A DNA stretch of 40,171 bases from a virus, in the UHGV virus genome UHGV-0154679. One strand, written 5' to 3'. The first letter of the stretch is position 1; every line of letters starts with the position of its first letter. This document shows, piece after piece, positions 1,757-34,936 of this stretch. Made by a program: the position numbers and the translations under genes. The notes below the pieces were generated by a model that did no database searches, had not been told where the DNA came from, and saw only the letters and a list, made by a program, of their open reading frames with translations.

Positions 1757-1990
1757 ATGGGAAAATTAACTTTTGTAGTCGAATTTGAGGATGGCAAAGA
1801 GCCACCTGTTAGCGCCAATCTTGATGTTGCTGGTGGCAGGCTGGTTTCGGTTCTATTTGGTGATTACCGCGACGACTTCTTTCAGCCTGAAGAAGTTGAT
1901 GTAGTGCGAGAAGCATTAAACGAGCTAAGTGTTGATAACGATGATGCTCATGCGGAAATCATCAAAAAAATGGAACTGCTAACTCACTAA
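1757..1990 (+). CDS. Hypothetical acidic protein (77 aa)
   Basis: ORF with a GGGGG SD-like run before the ATG. Confidence 0.45.
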   Translation: MGKLTFVVEFEDGKEPPVSANLDVAGGRLVSVLFGDYRDDFFQPEEVDVVREALNELSVDNDDAHAEIIKKMELLTH

Positions 1991-2038
1991 ATTATCAATT
2001 ATGGTGCTATCACCTACGACACCGAGAGAAAATTTATA

Positions 2039-2167
2039 ATGTCAAAAGTAAATGTTTTGATTTTTTCAGCAATTGTTGGCTTTGGTTTTACTGCCGGAGT
2101 GCAGATTTATATTACGTGGGAAAAAATCATCAACTACGCATGGAGTTGTTTTATTAAGTGAGGTAAG
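2039..2167 (+). CDS. Possible small membrane peptide (42 aa)
   Basis: ATG 2039 gives MSKVNVLIFSAIVGFGFTAGVQIYITWEKIINYAWSCFIK; one hydrophobic helix; stop immediately precedes the next gene's SD/ATG. Below the track's size cut-off. Confidence 0.25.
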
Positions 2168-2168
2168 T

Positions 2169-2462
2169 ATGTGGAGAGGTAATAATCATGGCAAAAGCCA
2201 GATGATACTTACCGAATATAAGCTAGACCACAAAACCAATAAATCACGCTCAGTATATTTGCTCCGGCACAATAGCCGCGTAAGAAATACCGTGCTGGAA
2301 CAAAATCTGACAGTTGAAATGGATAATTGCGGGGGATTCAAGCCAACAATTTCGCTTGATGATTTTCCTCGTGGTTTAAGCGAAAGAGAAGCAATGCTGA
2401 AATTAGCAGAATGGCTACAAAGATTAAGCATTGCTATTGAAGATAACTGGTCTGAACCTTAA
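2169..2462 (+). CDS. Hypothetical protein (97 aa)
   Basis: SD GAGGTAAG before ATG 2169 (internal Met of track ORF 2073-2462). Confidence 0.4.
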   Translation: MWRGNNHGKSQMILTEYKLDHKTNKSRSVYLLRHNSRVRNTVLEQNLTVEMDNCGGFKPTISLDDFPRGLSEREAMLKLAEWLQRLSIAIEDNWSEP

Positions 2463-2468
2463 ATTTAT

Positions 2469-2843
2469 ATGATGACACTAAAACATTTTCTTGACCGCCC
2501 ATTATGGGCGGCAGCCGCAGGCTATGACTTTAATTATATGGATTGCATGTCTTGTACTGCCAATGCATACGACCATTCGTTCATCCTGCTGTTTAATTCT
2601 TTAAGAATATTGCCGGAAACAGAAGTTGGAGAGCTTCATTTATGGCTATTGGGCTTTATCGCGGCTGTCGTTGGTATTGCTGTATGGCCTTTTATTTTCT
2701 GGCTGGTGGCTGTTGTAGTGTGGTTTAAGTGCAAGACATACCGGAAAAAGTATTTCTTAGGTGATGGAATGACTGATATTGCCAAAATGAACATTGAAGA
2801 ATGGACTAAGGAATGTGAAAAGAAATGGCGCAAAAAGAAATGA
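2469..2843 (+). CDS. Hypothetical membrane protein (124 aa)
   Basis: Hydrophobic core LWLLGFIAAVVGIAVWPFIFWLVAVVVWF. Confidence 0.4.
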   Translation: MMTLKHFLDRPLWAAAAGYDFNYMDCMSCTANAYDHSFILLFNSLRILPETEVGELHLWLLGFIAAVVGIAVWPFIFWLVAVVVWFKCKTYRKKYFLGDGMTDIAKMNIEEWTKECEKKWRKKK

Positions 2844-3469
2844 CCAGAATCACTGAAGAGCGCATATCAGAGATTATTTCCCGTATCGAAATGTATGGTC
2901 ACGGTGCTGGATATACGGCAGATGAAGTATTGGAAATAGCCCAGCAGATGCTGGCCTTGAGACAAAAAGAGCAACATGAAAGTAATACGTGTAGATTGAA
3001 TTTTGAGCATTGGCTGGAACAGCAACGCGGAAAAATCGATGTGGACTGTGGTTGTGTGTCCACTGAAACATTCATGCACTGGCTGTGGGTAGCTTACGAG
3101 GCTGGCAACTATCCGGATATTCCGGATAGTTCGGTGCCAGCACCAGGAAAGGGCGTCACCGGTGAACGTATCCGAATTAAGCCGCATGTTTATCGCGAAC
3201 TGGTTAACCGTCTCCACGATACAGCGATCAAGTGTGCTGGCACCCAGCAATTACGAGAAAGAATTAGCCGTGTTTTGGGCGACGTTATTACACCAGATCA
3301 TCATAAACAAGCCGAGAAAAGTGGCCTGGAAAGGTGTCACCTTGAGGCGGCATTAAACATTAAGCCGGGGCATACGCTTGGCATTATTGATGCACTATTG
3401 GTTCATAAGATGGCCAGGGCTTTATTGCCGCTGGTGGATGCTGGCGATACAAGCGAGGGTGAAGTATGA
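2825..3469 (+). CDS. Hypothetical protein (214 aa)
   Basis: Long ORF in the same-strand gene array; start uncertain (ATG 2825 or 2840). Confidence 0.5.
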   Translation: MAQKEMTRITEERISEIISRIEMYGHGAGYTADEVLEIAQQMLALRQKEQHESNTCRLNFEHWLEQQRGKIDVDCGCVSTETFMHWLWVAYEAGNYPDIPDSSVPAPGKGVTGERIRIKPHVYRELVNRLHDTAIKCAGTQQLRERISRVLGDVITPDHHKQAEKSGLERCHLEAALNIKPGHTLGIIDALLVHKMARALLPLVDAGDTSEGEV

Positions 3470-3902: not shown

Positions 3903-4040
3903 TTAAGTAAGCCAGTGCATAATTCCATTTTTTACTGACCTTAAAAGCAAAATCAAAACGATGATGAGGATGATCGCCAGAATCTGGCTAATAACAGGCG
4001 CATCTAAAAATGCACTCAGGAACTGAAAAAAAGCAGTCAT
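3903..4040 (-). CDS. Candidate small hydrophobic peptide (45 aa)
   Basis: Minus-strand ATG at 4040 with AAGGA about 10 nt upstream; translation MTAFFQFLSAFLDAPVISQILAIILIIVLILLLRSVKNGIMHWLT, a single predicted TM helix. Confidence 0.25.
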   Translation of the reverse strand: MTAFFQFLSAFLDAPVISQILAIILIIVLILLLRSVKNGIMHWLT

Positions 4041-4449
4041 TAAGGTGGTTCCTTGTCAAATGTAAAGGAGCACTTGCTCACGTTGACGTAGAAACCCAAC
4101 CCCTATATAGTTGGATTCGGTGAAAGAAAGTCGTTAACGTGAGCTTACGGCACATGTTTTCGGAACAACATCAGGGAACGGCTAATTCCTTGATGCGGAT
4201 GGGGTCTGTAATGCAGACCCTATCTATTAACGTCATGATTGCATCTCAAATTTTCTCCTTATCTTCATTAATCAAAATTCATTTCATTTGTGAAACATCA
4301 CAATATTTAGAAAATGGCCCTCTTGCAAGTGCATAACTTTGTGGATAAATCAGGAAGAAAAAAGTTGATTCTGCGCACGGCAAGGCAGATAAGCTGTGCA
4401 CAAAAATCAATGGGAAAAGAAAAAAAATTAAAAGTTACTTTGCTGGTTA

Positions 4450-4457
4450 AATAATAG
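4450..4457. repeat. IS26 target-site duplication, left copy (AATAATAG)
   Basis: Identical 8-mer at 5278-5285 directly abutting the other IS end. Confidence 0.9.
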
Positions 4458-5277
4458 GGCACTGTTGCAAATAGTCGGTGGTGATAAACTTATCATCCCC
4501 TTTTGCTGATGGAGCTGCACATGAACCCATTCAAAGGCCGGCATTTTCAGCGTGACATCATTCTGTGGGCCGTACGCTGGTACTGCAAATACGGCATCAG
4601 TTACCGTGAGCTGCAGGAGATGCTGGCTGAACGCGGAGTGAATGTCGATCACTCCACGATTTACCGCTGGGTTCAGCGTTATGCGCCTGAAATGGAAAAA
4701 CGGCTGCGCTGGTACTGGCGTAACCCTTCCGATCTTTGCCCGTGGCACATGGATGAAACCTACGTGAAGGTCAATGGCCGCTGGGCGTATCTGTACCGGG
4801 CCGTCGACAGCCGGGGCCGCACTGTCGATTTTTATCTCTCCTCCCGTCGTAACAGCAAAGCTGCATACCGGTTTCTGGGTAAAATCCTCAACAACGTGAA
4901 GAAGTGGCAGATCCCGCGATTCATCAACACGGATAAAGCGCCCGCCTATGGTCGCGCGCTTGCTCTGCTCAAACGCGAAGGCCGGTGCCCGTCTGACGTT
5001 GAACACCGACAGATTAAGTACCGGAACAACGTGATTGAATGCGATCATGGCAAACTGAAACGGATAATCAACGCCACGCTGGGATTTAAATCCATGAAGA
5101 CGGCTTACGCCACCATCAAAGGTATTGAGGTGATGCGTGCACTACGCAAAGGCCAGGCCTCAGCATTTTATTATGGTGATCCCCTGGGCGAAATGCGCCT
5201 GGTAAGCAGAGTTTTTGAAATGTAAGGCCTTTGAATAAGACAAAAGGCTGCCTCATCGCTAACTTTGCAACAGTGCC
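4458..5277 (+). mobile_element. IS26: IS26 (IS6 family), complete 820-bp copy
   Basis: 14-bp terminal inverted repeats GGCACTGTTGCAAA (4458-4471) and TTTGCAACAGTGCC (5264-5277); internal ORF is the IS26 transposase; flanked by 8-bp direct repeat AATAATAG. Confidence 0.95.
4521..5225 (+). CDS. tnp26: IS26 transposase Tnp26 (234 aa)
   Basis: Protein begins [60 protein letters not shown], recognised as IS26/IS6-family DDE transposase. Track ORF 4503 trimmed to ATG 4521. Confidence 0.95.
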
Positions 5278-8637: not shown

Positions 8638-9831
8638 GTGACCTGGGACGATCACAAGAAGAATTTTGCTCGCCTGGCGCGAGATGGTGGTTACACCATC
8701 GCACAATATGCCGCCGAGTTTAATCTCAACCCAAACACCGCACGTCGTTATCTCCGTGCATTCAAAGAAGACACCAGAACAGCGGACAGCCGTAAGCCAA
8801 ATAAGCCTGTCAGGAAACCACTAAAAAGCATGATCATTGATCACGCTAATGATCAACGTGCAGGTGATCACATTGTGGCTGAAATGGCTGAAAAACAAAG
8901 AGTTAATGCTGTTGTCAGTGCCGCAGTCGAGAACGCTAAGCGCCAAAATAAGCGCATAAATGATCGTTCTGATGATCATGACGTGATCACCCGCGCCCAC
9001 CGTACCTTACGTGATCGCCTGGAACGCGACACCCTGGATGATGATGGTGAACGCTTTGAATTCGAAGCTGGCGATTACCTGATAGATAACGTTGAAGCGC
9101 GGAAGGCCGCGCGCGCTATGTTGCGTCGGTCCGGGGCCGATGTTCTGGAAACCACTCTTCTGGAAAAGTCTCTTTCTCATCTCCTTATGCTGGAGAACGC
9201 CAGGGATACGTGTATTCGCCTGGTGCAGGAAATGCGCGATCAGCAAAAAGACGATGATGAAGGTACTCCGCCTGAATACCGTATCGCGAGCATGCTAAAC
9301 AGCTGTTCCGCGCAGATAAGCAGCCTGATCAACACCATTTACAGCATCCGGAATAACTATCGAAAAGAAAGCCGGGAGGCGGAAAAGCACGCTTTGTCTA
9401 TGGGGCAAGCTGGCATTGTTAAGCTGGCATACGAACGAAAGCGTGAAAATAACTGGTCAGTGCTGGAAGCAGCTGAATTCATTGAGGCGCATGGCGGGAA
9501 AGTGCCGCCCCTGATGCTGGAGCAAATCAAAGCCGATCTGCGTGCTCCTAAGACCAATACCGATGATGAGGAAAGGCAAACAGCCGTCGGTGGCCCTTCT
9601 CTTGAAGATCTGGACAAAGTTGCGCGAGAACGGGCCGCCAACCGCCGCGCCGATGCCGCATTGTGGATTGAGCAGCGTAGGGAAGAAATCGCCGATATCG
9701 TTGATACAGGCGGTTATGGAGATGTTGATACTGAAGGTGTATCAAACGACCCATGGCTGGAACAAGACCTGGACGAAGACGAGGAGGAAGACGAAGAAGT
9801 TACCCGCAAGCTATACGGGGATGATGATTAA
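8638..9831 (+). CDS. pacA: PacA, terminase small (pac-recognition) subunit (397 aa)
   Basis: GTG start with AAAGGAAG SD; 397 aa; contains the hexamer pac site in its 5' part; acidic C-terminus; TAATG coupling to pacB. Confidence 0.92.
8831..8989 (+). promoter_or_regulatory. pac packaging site: 4 + 3 TGATCA/G hexamers with Dam GATC sites
   Basis: Hexamers at 8831, 8838, 8850, 8865 (left cluster) and 8961 (TGATCG), 8973, 8984 (right cluster). Confidence 0.85.
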
Positions 9832-11315
9832 TGGCCAGAAGTTGCGTAACGGACCCACGTTGGCGCGAGCTGGTGGCGCTATATCGTTATGACTGGATTG
9901 CGGCCGCTGATGTTTTGTTCGGCAAAACACCTACCTGGCAGCAGGATCTGATTATTGAGTCTGTGCAGGAACAGGGTAGCAAGACATCTGTTTCGTCTGG
10001 TCACGGTACCGGGAAATCAGACATGACTTCTATCATGATCATGTTGTTCATAATCATGTATCCCGGTGCCCGCGCCATTATCGTTGCGAACAAAATTCAG
10101 CAGGTAATGACCGGTATATTCAAGTACATCAAGATAAACTGGGCTACGGCCACCAGCCGTTTTCCATGGCTTGCTGATTATTTTGTTCTGACAGAAACCG
10201 CTTTCTATGAGGTTACTGGTAAAGGTGTATGGACTGTAGTACCGAAGGGCTTTCGTCTGGGAAGTGAAGAAGCTCTCGCCGGTGAACACGCAGATCATCT
10301 TCTGTATATTATCGATGAAGCCTCCGGTGTCAGTGATAGAGCTTTCGGTATCATCACCGGTGCTCTTACCGGACAGGATAACCGCATCTTATTACTGTCA
10401 CAGCCTACACGCCCAAGCGGCTATTTCTACGATACACACCATAAACTGGCCAAGCGTCCTGGTAACCCTGATGGCGTTTATACGGCGATCACGCTTAACA
10501 GTGAGGAATCACCGCTGGTAACGCCAGCATTTATCAAAATGAAGCTGGCGGAGTACGGCGGGCGTGATAACCCTATGTACATGATTAAGGTACGCGGCCT
10601 ATTCCCTAAATCACAGGATGGCTTCCTTCTTGGACGTGATGAGGTTGAACGTGCAACGCGGCGGAAAGTCAAGATTGCAAAAGGATGGGGCTGGCTTGCA
10701 TGTGTGGACGTTGCTGGTGGTACGGGACGGGATAAGTCCGTTATCAATATCATGATGGTGTCCGGCCAGCGAAATAAACGCCGTGTAATCAACTATCGAA
10801 TGCTGGAATACACAGACGTTACAGAAACGCAGCTTGCCGCCAAAATTTTCGCAGAATGTAATCCTGAGCGATTCCCAAATATCACCATAGCGATAGACGG
10901 CGATGGCCTGGGTAAAGCAACGGCGGATCTGATGTACGAGTATTATGGTATTACCGTACAGCGTATACGCTGGGGTAAAAAGATGCATAGCCGTGAAGAT
11001 AAGAGCCTGTACTTTGATAAACGTGCTTATGCCAACGTTCAAGCCGCAGAGGCCGTAAAATCTGGTCGTATGAGACTGGATAAGGGTAATGAAACTATTG
11101 AGGAAGCGTCGAAAATCCCTGTAGGGATTAACTCCGCAGGTCAATGGAAGGTGATGAGTAAGGAGGATATGAAGAAAAAACTCAACCTGCACTCACCAGA
11201 CCATTGGGATACATATTGTTTCGCTATGCTGGCGGATTATGTTCCCCAGGATGAAGTGCTTAGCATCGAAGACGAAGCGCAGGTTGATGAAGCTCTGGCA
11301 TGGCTTAATGAATAA
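9831..11315 (+). CDS. pacB: PacB, terminase large subunit (494 aa)
   Basis: Walker A GHGTGKS and Walker [11 protein letters not shown]; 494 aa; coupled to pacA. Confidence 0.93.
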
Positions 11316-28334: not shown

Positions 28335-28884
28335 TGACCAGTCCCGTCAGGCAAAGCTGGCGTTCTTTTTCACGGCGAATCTTTAAACCTCGCAGGGGCA
28401 CGCCGTTACTGTTCACGAAATCAGGGAGATGGTTACACATATTCACCCATTCTCCTTTCTGCGCCCACTTGTGGATGGACGTTTCTACTCGCATGCCTCG
28501 CGCTTTGCTGTAGTAGGTCCGTAAACTATTGCATCCCATATTGAATGCCGCGCTTGTCATTGCGCTAAAGGCATTATCGGGCATGTCTTTGCCCCGGAAG
28601 TGCTGGTTAATACAGCGTTCAGCGATCAGGATATTCTTTTCCCAATCAGCGGCGATTTGCTGGTCGGTTTTTCGCACGCCCGGCGTTACCCCGTGTGTAT
28701 TACCAATCCCGTCAGTCCATACACCCGCCGGGCACATGTATGGGTCACGTCGGCAACCTTCAGCGTTTCCGATAAGCTCAAGCCCCGCCTGGTTGGTTCG
28801 CACATTGCCATTACCCATCACGATGGTAATCATCACCGCGATAGCGCAAATTGCACCGCCTCCTGCGGCTGTTTTTCCCTTCAT
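28327..28884 (-). CDS. lyz: Lyz, SAR endolysin (T4-lysozyme family, 185 aa)
   Basis: N-terminal Gly/Ala-rich SAR segment MKGKTAAGGGAICAIAVMITIVMG followed by a lysozyme-like catalytic region; 185 aa. Confidence 0.9.
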   Translation of the reverse strand: MKGKTAAGGGAICAIAVMITIVMGNGNVRTNQAGLELIGNAEGCRRDPYMCPAGVWTDGIGNTHGVTPGVRKTDQQIAADWEKNILIAERCINQHFRGKDMPDNAFSAMTSAAFNMGCNSLRTYYSKARGMRVETSIHKWAQKGEWVNMCNHLPDFVNSNGVPLRGLKIRREKERQLCLTGLVNE

Positions 28885-29016
28885 AAAGACCTCATAAGCG
28901 AATTTTTACGCTCCAGGACAAACACCCATTCACAGCCAATACCGACTGACTCGATCCCTTTAGAAGACACAGGATAATGCAAATCACTTGTTAGCTACGT
29001 TTCAAAGATATACATT

Positions 29017-29033
29017 ATTGCTCTAATTAATTT
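29017..29033 (+). promoter_or_regulatory. C1 operator-like 17-mer ATTGCTCTAATTAATTT in the lyz/ssb divergent region
   Basis: 15/17 match to the recalled consensus, 20 nt upstream of the ssb start. Confidence 0.6.
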
Positions 29034-29052
29034 ATTTTATTAGGTAAGATAA

Positions 29053-29541
29053 GTGGCACAACGCGGTGTAAACAAAGTCATCCTGATTGGTACCCTGGGG
29101 CAAGACCCGGAGATCAGGTATATACCAAATGGCGGCGCGGTCGGAAGACTCAGCATCGCAACGAATGAATCATGGCGCGACAAGCAAACGGGCCAACAGA
29201 AAGAGCAAACAGAATGGCATAAAGTCGTTTTGTTCGGAAAACTTGCTGAAATTGCGAGTGAGTATTTACGAAAAGGTTCTCAGGTCTACATCGAAGGGAA
29301 ACTTAAAACCCGTAAGTGGACAGATGACGCCGGTGTAGAACGTTACACGACGGAAATTATCGTCAGCCAGGGCGGCACCATGCAAATGATCGGCGCTCGC
29401 CGCGACGATTCACAGTCCTCAAATGGCTGGGGGCAGTCAAACCAACCTCAAAACCACCAGCAATACAGCGGTGGTGGCAAACCTCAGAGCAGCGCCAATA
29501 ACGAACCTCCAATGGACTTTGAAGACGATATTCCGTTTTAG
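29053..29541 (+). CDS. ssb: Single-stranded DNA-binding protein (162 aa)
   Basis: Strong similarity to E. coli SSB ([27 protein letters not shown]...[29 protein letters not shown]) with Gly/Gln-rich tail ending DDIPF; GTG start. Confidence 0.95.
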
Positions 29542-29743
29542 AGTTTATGAGTAAAAAACGACTGAAAGAAAAGCGGTGGTCCAAACGCCAACAAAAGCAC
29601 GAACTCGCTAAAAAACGCCAAAGTTGGCAATGGAACGCGTTTTTAACGAACAGAACACCCCGAGATATTGCTTTCGCTGGTGGGAAAACATTCCTGACCC
29701 ACCTGAAGGCGCAATACATCAGTTTTTAAGCAGAGAAAAGACT

Positions 29744-30532
29744 ATGGCAGCACAAAATACTAAAACAATTCAATACCGCCTGCGTAATGGCCAGAGTGTC
29801 GAAGTGACCATCAATAATGATGGTGTACCTGGCGAAAAGGTTTCTATCTCCGATCTGGCTATCGAAAAAACCATCATGTGCCACCTTGGCTTTACTGAAG
29901 AAGTGAGCAAAAAGCATGGTGTAGCAATCTGGAGCGCAATGGATACTGGTATGCGCAAATTCATTACTGCTCGTACCCCAGGGATGACCATGATGGACCT
30001 CATGCAGATTGCGCCGCTGTTTGAATGTGAGCCTTTAGATGTATTCAGCAATCCAGCTATCTGCCAGCAGTTATATGGTGAGATGAAACTCGCGGTTACC
30101 CCCATTGTGCTGCATGAAGGATCGCTTGCTGGCGTGTGGAAAGTGGAGCGTATTTCAAGCTACATGCCTTTCCATGTCAACGGCGTAATCACTGGTGAAA
30201 ATCAACCTGTTTCCGTTATAAAGTCAGACCTCAAGCGCGCAATTCTTGAAGCAAGTTGTCGAGTTGTCGGCCTGGGCAAACAGTCTTATGTTTCCTTCCC
30301 GGCTGGCCCTGAAGGCCCGGCAGAAATTCTGATTATGGATGCCGATCTGCTATGGCAAATACAGTTTCTGATTGGCAAAAGCATCATCCGCGCTGAAGAA
30401 CTCGATCAGTACATTACCTGCACGATGACGGATGAAGTCAAAAGTGTGGCTATAGCCAATGCCCGGAACCTATGTCGTGCTGCATTAACAGAACTGCAAG
30501 AAAACACCACGGAAGAGGTGGAAAGTGATTAA
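29744..30532 (+). CDS. Hypothetical protein (262 aa), upstream partner of the PacB paralogue
   Basis: ATG 29744 (the track ORF extends to 29624, a TTG start); stop overlaps the GTG start of the next gene. Confidence 0.5.
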   Translation: MAAQNTKTIQYRLRNGQSVEVTINNDGVPGEKVSISDLAIEKTIMCHLGFTEEVSKKHGVAIWSAMDTGMRKFITARTPGMTMMDLMQIAPLFECEPLDVFSNPAICQQLYGEMKLAVTPIVLHEGSLAGVWKVERISSYMPFHVNGVITGENQPVSVIKSDLKRAILEASCRVVGLGKQSYVSFPAGPEGPAEILIMDADLLWQIQFLIGKSIIRAEELDQYITCTMTDEVKSVAIANARNLCRAALTELQENTTEEVESD

Positions 30533-31619
30533 TCGTATACAGAATGAATCTGCCTGGTTAGCACTGATAGAACGGTATAAAGACAATTGGGAACTGGCAG
30601 CAAAAGAGTTGCTTGATATTGAGTTAACACCTCATCAAGCAAAAATTATTAACGCGATAAAGAACACCGGAGCCAAAGTCACTGCCACCACACCACATGG
30701 TATTGGGGAAACCTCTATTGTGGCAGTGATTAGCATCCTGCAAACAATACTGTATTCGTGTTCCCGTACAGTGGTTGTTTCTCCTGCGATTAACGATAGT
30801 CGAAAAACAATAATTGACTATATGTTCCGTTATTGGGAGCGAGTTACCCAAAAACACCCTTTTCTTGGCAATTATTTCAGAATACACCCTGACAAAGGGT
30901 TGGTGCATATCAGTGAAACATGGGGATGCGTCTATATAACCTATTGTCTGAATAACGAAGAGTCTCTGGCTGGTTTTACTGGACCGCACGATCTTTTCAT
31001 CGTTATTAACTCGGCGGAAATCAGCGATCGCGCTCATGCAGTGATAACTGGCAATTTAACCAATTATGACTCGCGCCTGCTGTTGCTGTCGAAACCATCG
31101 GAACGCGAGAAAGGGTACTTTTATGATTCGCATCACCGGTTGGCCCATAGTAAAAACAATCCTGCTGGTTTTTTCACGGCGATAACTCTAAACACAGAGG
31201 ATTCACCTCTCGTTTCTGAAGCATATCTTGAATTCAAAGCCAAAGAGTTTGGTGGGCGCAATAGCGATGAATATCGCCGATTGATCTTGGGGAAATTTCC
31301 CGGGATTCGGGAGTTGATGGAAAAGTCATCTGTTCCCCGTAATATGCACTTCACAATGACTGACGGTAGTAAATGGGTAGTGCCTACGATCGTGATCGCC
31401 AAACACCATGCGAAACATCACGCTCAAAAACACAACTCCAGCACATTAGACTGGCTGAAGGCCTATACAATACCGTTATTCTCGGCAAACCATAACGCTA
31501 TAGCTGAATGGGCTAAACAAATCCCCTGGCAGGATGTGGCTGAAGAGGCATTTGTCGAAAAACCACCAAGAGATTTGCACGAGCACTGTTGGCTGACATC
31601 AGAAAAAAGCTTCTCGTGA
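30525..31619 (+). CDS. PacB-paralogous protein: terminase ATPase-like domain with degenerate Walker motifs (364 aa)
   Basis: Collinear with PacB residues about 10-260 in this window (DNWELAAKEL vs [10 protein letters not shown]; RLLLLSKPSEREKGYFYDSHHRLA vs [23 protein letters not shown]; FFTAITLNTEDSPLV vs [15 protein letters not shown]); Walker A is HGIGETS (Lys to Glu) and Walker B is FIVINSAE (DE to NS); no nuclease-domain counterpart. Confidence 0.7.
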   Translation: MINRIQNESAWLALIERYKDNWELAAKELLDIELTPHQAKIINAIKNTGAKVTATTPHGIGETSIVAVISILQTILYSCSRTVVVSPAINDSRKTIIDYMFRYWERVTQKHPFLGNYFRIHPDKGLVHISETWGCVYITYCLNNEESLAGFTGPHDLFIVINSAEISDRAHAVITGNLTNYDSRLLLLSKPSEREKGYFYDSHHRLAHSKNNPAGFFTAITLNTEDSPLVSEAYLEFKAKEFGGRNSDEYRRLILGKFPGIRELMEKSSVPRNMHFTMTDGSKWVVPTIVIAKHHAKHHAQKHNSSTLDWLKAYTIPLFSANHNAIAEWAKQIPWQDVAEEAFVEKPPRDLHEHCWLTSEKSFS

Positions 31620-31624
31620 GGTAA

Positions 31625-31648
31625 AAATCCCGCCGATTGGCGGGATTT
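31625..31648. terminator. 10-bp stem hairpin AAATCCCGCC-GATT-GGCGGGATTT between convergent genes
   Basis: A-run upstream and T-rich downstream on both strands. Confidence 0.5.
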
Positions 31649-31650
31649 CT

Positions 31651-31959
31651 TCAATATACGATCTGGTCTACATGATCACCAAAATCATCGTCGTCGTCCT
31701 CATCGCCACCATCTACTGCTGGCCAATCAACAAACCAGCCAGCGTAAAGATGCAGCGTTCGGAGAACATCACTTGCGGGAGCATCAAGGGTGTTAACGAA
31801 TCCCATATAGCTATTGGGATTTGCCCCAGCTATGGCTTCAGCGATCATGTCCTCGGTAATGTCACCGGAGATAATGCTTAAACGCCCGGAAACTTCTTCA
31901 TTATCATCAAATTCGATAATGGCATCTCCGCCTAATGGCGCTGCGATTTTAATCTGCAT
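31651..31959 (-). CDS. Hypothetical acidic protein at the distal end of the darA operon (102 aa)
   Basis: Minus-strand ORF overlapping the ddrB stop; Asp-rich C-terminus. Confidence 0.4.
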   Translation of the reverse strand: MQIKIAAPLGGDAIIEFDDNEEVSGRLSIISGDITEDMIAEAIAGANPNSYMGFVNTLDAPASDVLRTLHLYAGWFVDWPAVDGGDEDDDDDFGDHVDQIVY

Positions 31960-34936
31960 TATTTAGCTCCTTTGCCACACCTAATAACAGTTCCAGCAAT
32001 CCGTCACCATTCATCAGTGATGCGGCAGCGGCCTCTTTGTCATGATACAACTGAAGAGCCATAGAGAATACTTCCGTTGCTGACGTTTTGGAAATAGTCG
32101 GTGATTTCTGCCGAATTTTCCCGGTGTTACTTACTGAGGCTGGCGGGTATACCTTCGCCATATAAATATTACTCAATCGAGATCTGAAGCACCATTCAGG
32201 CTTGCCACGCCCACCGATATTGACGAAAGATGGCTTATCCCCTTCAACATTGGCCTTCAGGAATGACCGGGCTTTCTCTAACAAACCAGGGTTACTGTAC
32301 TCAAGATGATGACCCAGCTCGTGCCACAGTGCACTTGCATTTTCATCGTTCAAATTGACAGCAACAACACCATTTAGATTTGCATATGCCCTTCCCTGGT
32401 GGTGAACCACTTTTGATAAGGTCGATATTTTCCCGCCGGTCAGGCGATAAATATCAGCAAGTTCCTTGCGCAGGTCTATCCCACCATTCTGTCCAGCGCG
32501 GGCTTCTTCCACTTCTTCCGTGATAAAAGAGTCGGCCCACTCAAGAGCTTTTTCTTCAGATACGGATGAGTTTGCGATCGCACTGTTCATGGCAGATAAC
32601 ACTTTCTCGTGGACCGAACCCATACTTCGCTGATTCATTTGCCAGCGTGTCTGCGGGTTATATGAGAATCGCTTAAGTAGTTGGTCAAGCTGCTCAAGTT
32701 CTTCTTCACTGACATACTTTTTAGCCTCACCAATAATGCCAGGGAGAATATTGCCGTTAGGATTAAACGCTCGCGACAGGAAGAGTTTCAGCGCCCCCAT
32801 GCCCTCCGATGCTTCAATATCACCAATAACCCGGTTAACAATGGCCGCACTCTTCGGATTAGCATCCGCCAACGCTCTGGCTACGATTTGCAGGGACGAT
32901 ACGACCTCACGCTGCATATCAGTCCTGATCTCATCAATAAACTCTGGCGTTATGCCGTGCTCTTTAAGGATATCCCGGCCTTCCGCCGTTACCCCATCGA
33001 TATCACCGACATGTTTATTAACACGACTTTGCAATGCCTTAAATGCCTTCAGAATTCCACGGGCATCATCCGCTTTACTAACGGCCTTCCTGAATGCTGG
33101 CAAGAAGTCTGAGTTAACCTCATTTTGTTGATCGGCCCACTGAATGGAGGCTTCTTTCATCTCGTCCAGAGTCAGATCACCCAACGCGGTATGGTCTGTG
33201 AATATGAGCGACAACCTCTGAACCATTTCTGCCAATGGTGATGCCGAATGCGCCGCGCTAAGGAATGCTTTCACCCTGGTTGGGCGAATGGAAAACCAGT
33301 CAATAGCTGGTGGCATATCTCCGTTTTTTATCGCCTGCGCTATCTCGTCAAAGCCATCGCGCCCAAGGGAGGATGCGTGATTTAACAAGCCGCGAAGTAA
33401 CGAATTGCTGATACCGAATAATCGGCACCATTTTTTCACGTCGGCAACAGGCATTCGAACAAAATGCGCAAGCACTTGTACAAGCTGTTCATCCTGGGGA
33501 TCTGTGCGGGAAAGCAGCCTGATCAGATGAATAATGTCTTTGATGCCGGATGCCCGATGTAATAGCAAACTGGTATACGGAGCAACACCGTTGTAACTAC
33601 CGCCGGAAACGGACTCGAAAAGACCGCCGGATATCCCTTGCATGCCTTCGTTTTCCAGTTCCTGAGACACCTGGCGAAGGATATCCTGTAACGACACATC
33701 GCCGCCGCCAAACATATCCCCCAGCGCCTGGCCCTGGTGCTGTAACTCATCATTGATACGTTGAGCCATCAACTTAAAGGCGGTGGCCATACGCTTCGCG
33801 CTACGGTTATTCGCGACGATGAACAACGCGAGTGCTTTCACTTCCGGGGCCGTTTCGCTGAACATATCCCCCTGAGCAATAACATCGGTAATATGCTGGC
33901 CTGACTCCTTCGATTGCCTTACCAGGTCTACCGCATCTTTCAATGCCTCCAGCGCCTTTTTATCGAGGCTATCCGCTGTCTCAATGCCATCAACAATAGT
34001 TGTCACAGCCTGCTTGTGCGCTTCTCCTGATAAAGCCTGCATCTGGACAAAATCATTGGCTGCCGCATTAAGCGCCGTCAGAACATTACGCATATCCGGA
34101 TCAGGTTCTTCTGCAACCATCCTTACCAGGCGCGCATCCTTATATGCCTTGGCAAAGATCGCGTTTTGTATACGGTCAACAAGTTGCCGTGTTGGTCGCC
34201 CATCTTCCGTTACAAGGCCAGCAGCCTGTGTGGCACCAACTTGCGTCATGAATCCGCGAATAAACGCGTCATTACTGCGGCTAAGCAGATCTCCGCTTTC
34301 TGATGGGTTAAACAGCGCCATCATCGCCGGAGTTATGCTGTCGGCATCAACAAAAGCCTTTTCACTGGCTGCCATTTCCTGGAGATCAGAAATATTTGAG
34401 TCCTTGGCAAACTGAACACGGTCAACCTTCGTTAACCGGCGGCGCACCAGTACCGGAGCCGTCATTGATTCAACCTTTTCAGGCCGTATGCCGAATTCGG
34501 TCGCATGTTCAATCAGGTACTCCCGATACCGATCCGCATTACCGTCCTGATAGGCTTTAATGATCCCCATGGTCCGCCCATTACCTGACTCAACGGCATT
34601 GTCCTCACCAATTATTGGCGCACCATGGCTGGATAAACCGGAATCAGTAAGCTGAGCTGGCCGCAAATCTTTGGATATCTGGTTAACCTGAAGAAGGCTG
34701 GATGCGCGGGTCCGGTCGCGCGGCTGAAGTTCCTGGGGATAGTCAGGATTAATTTTCCCATCCAGAGTATTGGATACCAAAAGAGCTGAGGCATCGACGA
34801 TATCAAACGCTGTTTTTACCTCGTCTCCCTTCGCTGTCACCACATACGAAACCCGCCCATAATCGGGCAGGTTCTTTAGCAGCTCGATCAGCGTTTCTAT
34901 GCTGGTGGCCATTACCACCTGATCGCTTAAGCTCAT
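31949..34936 (-). CDS. ddrB: DdrB-like large protein with HExxH motif (995 aa)
   Basis: Position after darA-ddrA; contains WHELGHHLEY near the C-terminus. Confidence 0.6.
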   Translation of the reverse strand: MSLSDQVVMATSIETLIELLKNLPDYGRVSYVVTAKGDEVKTAFDIVDASALLVSNTLDGKINPDYPQELQPRDRTRASSLLQVNQISKDLRPAQLTDSGLSSHGAPIIGEDNAVESGNGRTMGIIKAYQDGNADRYREYLIEHATEFGIRPEKVESMTAPVLVRRRLTKVDRVQFAKDSNISDLQEMAASEKAFVDADSITPAMMALFNPSESGDLLSRSNDAFIRGFMTQVGATQAAGLVTEDGRPTRQLVDRIQNAIFAKAYKDARLVRMVAEEPDPDMRNVLTALNAAANDFVQMQALSGEAHKQAVTTIVDGIETADSLDKKALEALKDAVDLVRQSKESGQHITDVIAQGDMFSETAPEVKALALFIVANNRSAKRMATAFKLMAQRINDELQHQGQALGDMFGGGDVSLQDILRQVSQELENEGMQGISGGLFESVSGGSYNGVAPYTSLLLHRASGIKDIIHLIRLLSRTDPQDEQLVQVLAHFVRMPVADVKKWCRLFGISNSLLRGLLNHASSLGRDGFDEIAQAIKNGDMPPAIDWFSIRPTRVKAFLSAAHSASPLAEMVQRLSLIFTDHTALGDLTLDEMKEASIQWADQQNEVNSDFLPAFRKAVSKADDARGILKAFKALQSRVNKHVGDIDGVTAEGRDILKEHGITPEFIDEIRTDMQREVVSSLQIVARALADANPKSAAIVNRVIGDIEASEGMGALKLFLSRAFNPNGNILPGIIGEAKKYVSEEELEQLDQLLKRFSYNPQTRWQMNQRSMGSVHEKVLSAMNSAIANSSVSEEKALEWADSFITEEVEEARAGQNGGIDLRKELADIYRLTGGKISTLSKVVHHQGRAYANLNGVVAVNLNDENASALWHELGHHLEYSNPGLLEKARSFLKANVEGDKPSFVNIGGRGKPEWCFRSRLSNIYMAKVYPPASVSNTGKIRQKSPTISKTSATEVFSMALQLYHDKEAAAASLMNGDGLLELLLGVAKELNNAD

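Follow-up and report, generated by a model that had tools for sequence, protein, structure and literature searches.

An optional, degenerate terminase paralogue overlapping isaA in the ssb–hxr accessory hot-spot of P1-like phage-plasmids

Results and Discussion

A PacB-derived gene between ssb and hxr

The viral genome UHGV-0154679, a 40,171-nt stretch of DNA analysed here at its full length and hereafter called the window, is a P1-like phage-plasmid, and we have focused on the block at positions 29,542–31,959, between ssb and ddrB, which contains isaA, a paralogue of the packaging gene pacB and the convergent gene hxr. The block appears, by sequence comparison, to be one occupancy state of the known ssb–hxr accessory hot-spot of P1-like phage-plasmids. 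The variability of this hot-spot is already known and nothing new; the unreported part of the block is an optional, selectively maintained, catalytically dead and nuclease-less copy of PacB that overlaps isaA. The block is 100% identical to plasmid NZ_CP024817 and, one single-base gap aside, to Escherichia phage vB_EcoM-813R1. An original prediction, made from the letters of the window, had described its open reading frames (ORFs), a gene overlap, a hairpin and a convergent acidic ORF, and each of them was recovered in place from the ORF listing and the raw sequence. The features that carry the main finding are the following (aa, amino acids):

29744–30532, plus strand: isaA, 262 aa, ATG start, TAA at 30530–30532
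29624–30532, plus strand: longer reading of isaA, 302 aa, TTG start, with ATG 29744 internal
30515–30532, plus strand: coupling junction of isaA and the paralogue, with a GAGGTG Shine–Dalgarno sequence, GTG at 30525–30527 and TAA at 30530–30532
30525–31619, plus strand: PacB paralogue, whole ORF, 364 aa, 1095 nt, GTG start
30525–31337, plus strand: paralogue aa 1–271, large-terminase ATPase-like domain with degenerate catalytic motifs
30687–30716, plus strand: Walker A remnant TTPHGIGETS (motif table)
30993–31016, plus strand: Walker B remnant LFIVINSA (motif table)
31338–31619, plus strand: paralogue aa 272–364 and stop, a domain of ~95 aa in place of the terminase nuclease domain

The relationship of the 364-aa protein to PacB, part of the original prediction, is one of true homology limited to the ATPase domain, with aa 11–272 aligning to the window's own PacB at 35% identity (E = 9e-55). 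The paralogue has a terminase-type ASCE ATPase fold, the same as that of the solved ATPase domains of large terminases (TerLs), and a search of its sequence against PDB sequences gave nothing significant. It has two further features in common with PacB, the glutamine of the Q motif and, following Walker B, the LLLS.P[ST] strand; conservation between the two proteins is highest at aa 186–248 of the paralogue (LLLS.P..., GYFYDSHH), with about 60% identity by a hand count on the alignment. The two differ in Walker A, where GKS has become GET, and in Walker B, where DEASG has become INSAE. The C-terminal RNase H-like nuclease domain is missing, as homology to PacB stops at about aa 272, and whereas PacB has 494 aa including that domain, the paralogue has 364 aa and ends in a different one. 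It also lies outside the packaging module, following ssb and isaA in the ssb operon instead of accompanying the small terminase and portal genes, at ~20 kb from pacA and pacB (8638–11315, with pacB at 9831–11315), and it is optional among P1-like elements.

The catalytic positions were compared in a motif table made of PacB and 11 other true TerLs (12 in all) from bacteria as diverse as Enterobacter, Clostridium and Sorangium. The Walker A G-K dipeptide is kept in 12/12 of these proteins and followed by Ser or Thr in 11/12 (G-K-[ST/D] overall), and all of them have DEASG in Walker B. The paralogue of the window has Glu (GAA codon, 30708–30710) for the P-loop Lys and Pro for the first Gly in its Walker A, and Asn-Ser (31008–31013) in place of the catalytic Asp-Glu in its Walker B. 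Every member of the paralogue family has the Walker A lysine and the Walker B Asp-Glu replaced, differently in each lineage:

Paralogue of the window type: Walker A GET, Walker B INSAE or INAAE
Paralogue P0002: Walker A GRP, Walker B VDSAH
Paralogue L031/P0027 (for L031 see below): Walker A GHK, Walker B MDAAL

Replacement of the same catalytic positions by different residues, in lineages otherwise 49–53% identical, argues for a release from catalytic constraint and not for a new active site. We interpret the 364-aa gene as a descendant of a PacB-type large terminase in which the ATPase fold survives but the lysine of the P-loop, Asp-Glu of Walker B and the entire nuclease domain do not, a loss on which the original prediction had not remarked; the label "terminase large subunit" that it carries in some GenBank records is misleading. 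No relevant description of a dead terminase paralogue or of a PacB paralogue was found in the searchable literature, and the gene is a clear example from nature of a packaging ATPase of a virus that has become a pseudoenzyme and been retained by selection.

Selection and distribution of the paralogue

Of 24 loci, 23 have the 1095-nt frame uninterrupted, and one GenBank record departs from this by a single-base gap. Pairwise ratios of nonsynonymous to synonymous substitution rates (dN/dS) range from 0.17 to 0.32 (pairs with dS of at least 0.05), and full-length homologues exist at 49–53% identity, with the C-terminal domain especially well conserved. These values point to purifying selection, and the intact frames, the dN/dS ratios and the full-length homologues disfavour a pseudogene. 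The gapped record (L003, ON470617.2, 3984–5077) comes from an otherwise identical phage, in which the coding sequence has been annotated as shorter (3984–5054); the gap is probably a sequencing or assembly error.

The family is narrow, comprising the P1-like form and one further lineage, and when the genome collection was scanned for full-length paralogues only genuine terminases were found outside Escherichia. Within PLSDB, 509 plasmid records match a query spanning ssb to ddrB; isaA is present in 336 of them and the paralogue in 120, that is, about a quarter of the P1-like plasmids, which come from Escherichia, Salmonella, Klebsiella and Shigella. The paralogue is missing from reference P1 and from P7. 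The notion that it represents an intact gene that in P1 was split by IS1, with isaB as its 3' part, was rejected, IsaB being dissimilar to the paralogue (E = 0.084) and belonging to a different PHROG.

Coupling and pairing with isaA

The GTG start of the paralogue (30525–30527) overlaps the end of isaA by 8 nt, with the GAGGTG Shine–Dalgarno sequence just upstream, so the overlapping start that had been predicted can be read directly in the sequence. In two elements that do not carry the paralogue neither signal is intact: the Shine–Dalgarno sequence reads GAAGTG instead of GAGGTG and the GTG is altered by AGT to AGC, both changes being synonymous in isaA. Among the 120 plasmids with the paralogue, 118 hold the whole block.

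The pair occurs a second time in L031 (JGI 3300045988 contig Ga0495776_018799, 5332–8531), from another lineage of phage-plasmids, whose C1 repressor is of the P7 type and whose recombinase is Cre-like. Here the genes lie downstream of cre, not of ssb, in the order dUTPase, Tad2-like protein, IsaA homologue (46–47% identity), paralogue homologue (49%) and Fic/Phd, and the start of the paralogue (GGAGG followed by ATGctgATG) overlaps the end of isaA by 14–20 nt. Since the pair keeps its order and overlap in spite of the change of locus and the divergence of about half of its residues, there is good evidence that isaA and the paralogue form a functional unit. The proposal, made originally from the coupling, that the two proteins act together has gained support from this recurrence in a lineage only 46–49% identical. 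Any dependence would be one-way: isaA occurs in far more of the surveyed records than the paralogue, and also without it in Raoultella, so IsaA does not need its partner.

The site downstream of cre in L031 corresponds to the position of P1's other hot-spot, on the res-mod side. Overall, the Tad2-like protein found there shares 78% identity with its P1-like counterpart, and the last ~95 residues are identical, a pattern that suggests recent recombination.

A candidate domain family in place of the nuclease

The last ~92–95 aa of the paralogue belong to an unrelated family of small domains, which takes the place of the nuclease domain. Scanning 1.84 billion representatives in full with HMMER retrieved 151 cluster representatives at E ≤ 1e-3, most of them stand-alone proteins of ~100 aa (proteins P0030–P0176), with the consensus motifs MPDGSxW, VIAxxRA, TxPLF and DWAxNNMxWxDV. 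The paralogue departs from this consensus at several positions, with HHA for xRA and Q-I-P-W for NNMxW. Its domain matches the C-terminus of phrog_17928 and aligns over its full length, at 25–36% identity, with the stand-alone phage proteins and with the C-terminus of ORF36 of Xanthomonas phage CP2 (phrog_17928). The profile search with the domain found no Pfam family and no relative among PDB sequences; the model of the paralogue has a predicted local distance difference test (pLDDT) score of 83–93 over aa ~270–340.

Among the relatives, ORF36 of phage CP2 has the domain fused to DUF1351 and adjoins Erf, exonuclease, endonuclease and SSB genes, gp35 of Cronobacter phage JK004 comes after DnaB, and gp107 of Bordetella phage PHB04 comes after RecE and an SMC-like ATPase. 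Neighbours across 17 viral contigs include RdgC, ERF, Mu Gam, SSB, Gp157, GemA, Mor and DNA methylases. The relatives with visible context lie in phage early or recombination modules, and the paralogue too is encoded beside ssb and recombination genes, although its copy of the domain follows a dead terminase ATPase domain and is neither alone nor preceded by DUF1351. We propose this ~95-aa domain, stand-alone or DUF1351-fused in diverse phages, as a candidate new domain family; the analysis delimits an un-named family typical of phage recombination modules.

The ssb–hxr slot as an accessory hot-spot

At least 80% of the block is kept in only 118 of the 509 plasmid records, and other elements have a variety of architectures in the same interval:

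L004: isaA alone
L005: DUF2829/Tad2-like gene (987–1664) and isaA
L006: isaA and the HipA-family toxin YjjJ (1984–3288)
L007: OmpC porin (1023–2135) replacing isaA
L008: DUF2829, isaA and the paralogue
L009: isaA and a 69-aa ORF
L113 (plasmid pJIE250-3, NZ_MN510445, 21668–23023): annotated anti-phage dGTPase

P1 itself has isaA, ~94 bp, IS1 and isaB, the last unrelated to the paralogue. The original prediction had been of a second variable region made of three genes. The interval does vary, the synteny comparison showing a variable slot and not a conserved backbone with morphogenetic functions, but as a variable region it has already been published. It corresponds to RD-2, defined as P1 21,540–24,243, isaA-IS1-isaB (Venturini et al., 2019, PMC6906374), and to "region 2 (isaA, insB, insA, isaB)", listed as one of eight highly variable regions (Microbiol Spectr 2022, PMC9603915). 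The window block sits in the same position between ssb and hxr and likewise consists of alternative cargo. Nor does the variable unit have three genes: it has two, as hxr is backbone and was matched in every comparison element examined. A genome-wide CRISPR interference study has found isaA, isaB and hxr to be non-essential (PMC10695390).

The passages retrieved from the two papers on RD-2 and region 2 frame the region by its P1 gene content and by insertions of antibiotic-resistance genes, and these passages make no mention of a terminase paralogue; the word "terminase" occurs 0 times in PMC6906374, while PMC9603915 was not searched for it. According to PMC6906374, the RD-2 cargo of pJIE250-3 is the dGTPase, not the paralogue; the "putative phosphohydrolase" of that plasmid's RD-2 was considered as a possible paralogue and rejected, being the anti-phage dGTPase. 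The alternative cargo (dGTPase, HipA-family toxin, OmpC, DUF2829/Tad2-like protein) makes the slot a site for defence and counter-defence cargo in addition to an insertion site for insertion sequences and antibiotic-resistance genes.

The GC content of the block is 0.42–0.48, compared to 0.49–0.55 in its flanks. The paralogue fits exactly between the TAA of isaA and the hairpin, and in elements without it the same hairpin comes directly after the isaA stop; repeats flanking this cassette were searched for and gave only short matches at chance level. At the other end of isaA, the DUF2829/Tad2-like cassette has entered exactly at the start codon (around 987–995 in L005 and L008; 29730–29746 in the window) and shares the Shine–Dalgarno/ATG context of isaA (AGCAGAG[A/G]AAAGACTATG), which suggests cassette exchange at translation start signals.

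IsaA

The 262-aa ORF is the IsaA of phage P1 (YP_006486; 94% identity over 302 aa), and it matches phrog_2326 with E = 4.9e-149 over residues 4–262. As in P1, isaA of the window sits directly after the ssb leader. In P1 it is then followed by ~94 bp and IS1, while in the window the paralogue comes next. The P1 record also annotates a 320-aa form that starts 30 nt after ssb, inside the stretch of a small leader ORF. Long readings of IsaA, either the 320 aa of P1 or the 302 aa that had been put forward as an alternative starting at 29624, were rejected: several relatives have an in-frame TAG within the 5' extension, and homologues at 44–48% identity begin at the position of ATG 29744. The comparative data thus favour a proper length of 262 aa from this ATG.

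IsaA has no match in Pfam, NCBIfam or PADLOC and nothing significant among PDB sequences. Its model is mediocre (pLDDT 60.8, good only for aa ~35–115), the N-terminal half being predicted to adopt a "phage ABA-sandwich"-like fold, and its C-terminal tail is acidic. The original observation that it does not resemble PacA holds (hhalign probability 0.1%), and a role as a PacA-like small terminase was rejected for lack of similarity and because the fold matches are unrelated.

Leader, hairpin and transcription

The features around the isaA–paralogue pair are as follows:

28988–29050, plus strand: ssb promoters P2ssb and P1ssb with the C1 operator Ossb, by match to P1; outside the block
29053–29541, plus strand: ssb (Pfam SSB, E = 7e-40; P1 annotation)
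29547–29729, plus strand: leader with a basic small ORF of 60 codons, a candidate gene, the frame conserved among haplotypes
31625–31648, both strands: two-way hairpin resembling an intrinsic terminator, by folding energy
31651–31959, minus strand: hxr, 102 aa (P1 annotation; phrog_2292, E = 2e-59)
31949–34936, minus strand: ddrB, 995 aa, of the antirestriction operon, the right-hand backbone neighbour (Pfam ddrB-ParB, E = 1.7e-39; P1 annotation)

The leader after ssb is always conserved ahead of isaA or of the DUF2829 cassette. Its small ORF is very basic, begins with MSKKRLKEKRWSKRQQKH and keeps an open frame of exactly 60 codons in each of the 15 distinct leader haplotypes that have it, despite many amino-acid changes among them; it is a candidate gene, as yet unproven. 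Rfam gave no match in 28800–32200, the 200-nt leader included.

The hairpin at 31625–31648 (AAATCCCGCC GATT GGCGGGATTT) is as strong as had been predicted, with a 10-bp stem, a GATT loop and folding energies of -20.7 kcal/mol on the plus strand and -19.3 on the minus strand (z = -4.35 and -4.84 against dinucleotide shuffles, of which 1/200 and 0/200, respectively, folded as well). The U-tract is better on the minus strand (GGCGGGAUUUUUA, where UUUUUA follows) than on the plus strand (UUUCUUC), and the GC-rich stem-loop with its U-tract is what is expected of a Rho-independent terminator. A simple terminator scan did not call the hairpin because the run of T belongs to the stem. We consider it a terminator-like end, to judge by its fold, for both the ssb-isaA-paralogue unit (plus strand) and the darA-ddrB-hxr unit (minus strand).

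Upstream, positions 28960–29060 are 100% identical to P1 (L001, 4419–4519) over the stretch that bears P2ssb, Ossb and P1ssb, and these promoters probably drive the whole ssb-isaA-paralogue unit, which would then be co-transcribed. A simple promoter scan called no plus-strand promoter, and the annotated ssb promoters likewise went uncalled.

Possible role of the paralogue

The reading that we prefer, and on which we are evenly balanced, is that the block represents an accessory-hot-spot state in which a non-catalytic terminase derivative acts with IsaA. The paralogue would be unable to power packaging or cut DNA and would hence have to act by binding; translated by coupling to isaA, it would probably work as a complex with IsaA. 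The unit would probably be transcribed with ssb from the C1-repressed ssb promoter, through the leader to the hairpin, in which case the protein would be made early after infection or induction. Its role may be that of an accessory in early DNA transactions, or in conflict between phage and host or between phages, rather than in head filling, and it would be dispensable, because isaA is non-essential in P1 and both P1 and P7 are without the paralogue. Conflict is plausible but unproven, given the alternating cargo of the slot and the neighbouring darA/ddrB antirestriction operon.

Several points weigh against this preferred reading. The canonical Walker residues are lost, yet this does not strictly prove a loss of nucleotide binding, dN/dS values of 0.2–0.3 amount to moderate constraint only, and the model of IsaA is poor. 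About two thirds of the carriers of IsaA, and Raoultella, have it without the paralogue, which indicates that IsaA also has an independent function. That the genes are co-transcribed with ssb is an assumption, and as the promoter scan missed even the annotated ssb promoters there is room for an internal one. Finally, the role in conflict amounts to guilt by association with neighbouring cargo, and none of IsaA, the paralogue and Hxr is matched by PADLOC-DB v2 at E ≤ 0.1.

A bolder version, which we think rather unlikely, would have the large terminase exapted as a non-catalytic pseudo-ATPase fused to an early-region domain and forming with IsaA a mobile conflict module of two genes in phage-plasmids, for interference with the packaging motor of rival elements or for blunting terminase-sensing immunity of the host. 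Packaging interference by itself is an unlikely explanation. A dead PacB copy would bind PacA, PacB, the portal or pac DNA and, where P1-like elements or satellites share the cell or superinfect it, poison their terminase or redirect it, or else tune the phage's own packaging. The retained terminase ATPase fold, with the segment best conserved with PacB, and the absence of catalytic residues are the classic make-up of a dominant-negative subunit, and the hot-spot also houses exclusion and defence cargo; but identity to the resident PacB is only 35%, which leaves co-assembly uncertain, own packaging would also be hit if the protein were made with ssb in lytic growth, and the C-terminal domain points to recombination or early modules. 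We consider it quite unlikely that IsaA and the paralogue are a two-gene anti-phage defence or exclusion system protecting the host, like the dGTPase in the slot of pJIE250-3. Such a system would be at home beside the anti-phage dGTPase and HipA-family toxin found in other occupants of the slot, and the pair does behave as a mobile two-gene module in two different hot-spots, but neither protein matches PADLOC, no effector domain (nuclease, TIR, pore, etc.) is recognisable, and the pair, with no promoter of its own detected and downstream of a C1-repressed one, may be silent in the lysogen.

The paralogue could also be a decoy that binds the host's sensors of large terminases (Avs1-3) without activating them and shields the real PacB. 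The surroundings are rich in counter-defence, with the darA/ddrB antirestriction operon and, in L008 and L031, a Tad2-like gene immediately upstream, and early expression would be suitable for this purpose. However, the published structure of Avs3 is said to show this sensor reading the ATPase active site and the nuclease domain, both of which the paralogue is without, and a mimic of the fold could equally trigger the sensor; such a decoy seems to us very improbable. That the gene is a non-functional relic, a decaying terminase duplicate hitch-hiking in a recombination hot-spot, has the slightest chance of all. It would explain the loss of the catalytic motifs and nuclease domain and why three quarters of P1-like plasmids, as well as P1 and P7, are without the gene, but not the intact frames and dN/dS values, the full-length homologues with their very well conserved C-terminal domain, or the conservation of Shine–Dalgarno sequence, start codon and isaA overlap in two lineages. 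Should the protein prove to be a terminase mimic with a part in phage-phage or phage-host conflict, its accessory function would be of a new class, and one within reach of phage genetics.

Hxr, DdrB and annotation

The convergent acidic ORF of 102 aa is the Hxr of P1. From its ATG on, it shares 11 nt with the end of ddrB, which makes hxr part of the ddrB/darA unit and not of the variable block, and it is present in all 30 loci compared, at 97.7–100% nucleotide identity, as well as in P7; the variable unit therefore ends at the hairpin, with hxr as backbone. Very acidic, with 3 basic residues to 23 acidic ones and an isoelectric point of 4.05, the protein has a DEDDDDD tail. The label given to it in P1, "possible repressor, homolog of Xre", is based on a 58-aa stretch of 28% identity. 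For a helix-turn-helix, no Pfam family was found in Hxr at E ≤ 1 and none is precomputed for any homologue. The homologues are close relatives only, eight at 92% identity or more and the most divergent at 79% and 60%, and those that are named come from E. coli. A function linked to its acidity, possibly as a DNA mimic or in association with Dar proteins, seems no less likely than one as a repressor. Correct annotation of the block is worthwhile in this respect, with isaA at 262 aa, hxr as backbone without a detectable helix-turn-helix, and the terminase label recognised as misleading. On the right-hand side, DdrB combines an N-terminal ddrB-ParB domain (PF18763, E = 1.7e-39) with a HELGHH motif like that of zinc metallopeptidases near its C-terminus.

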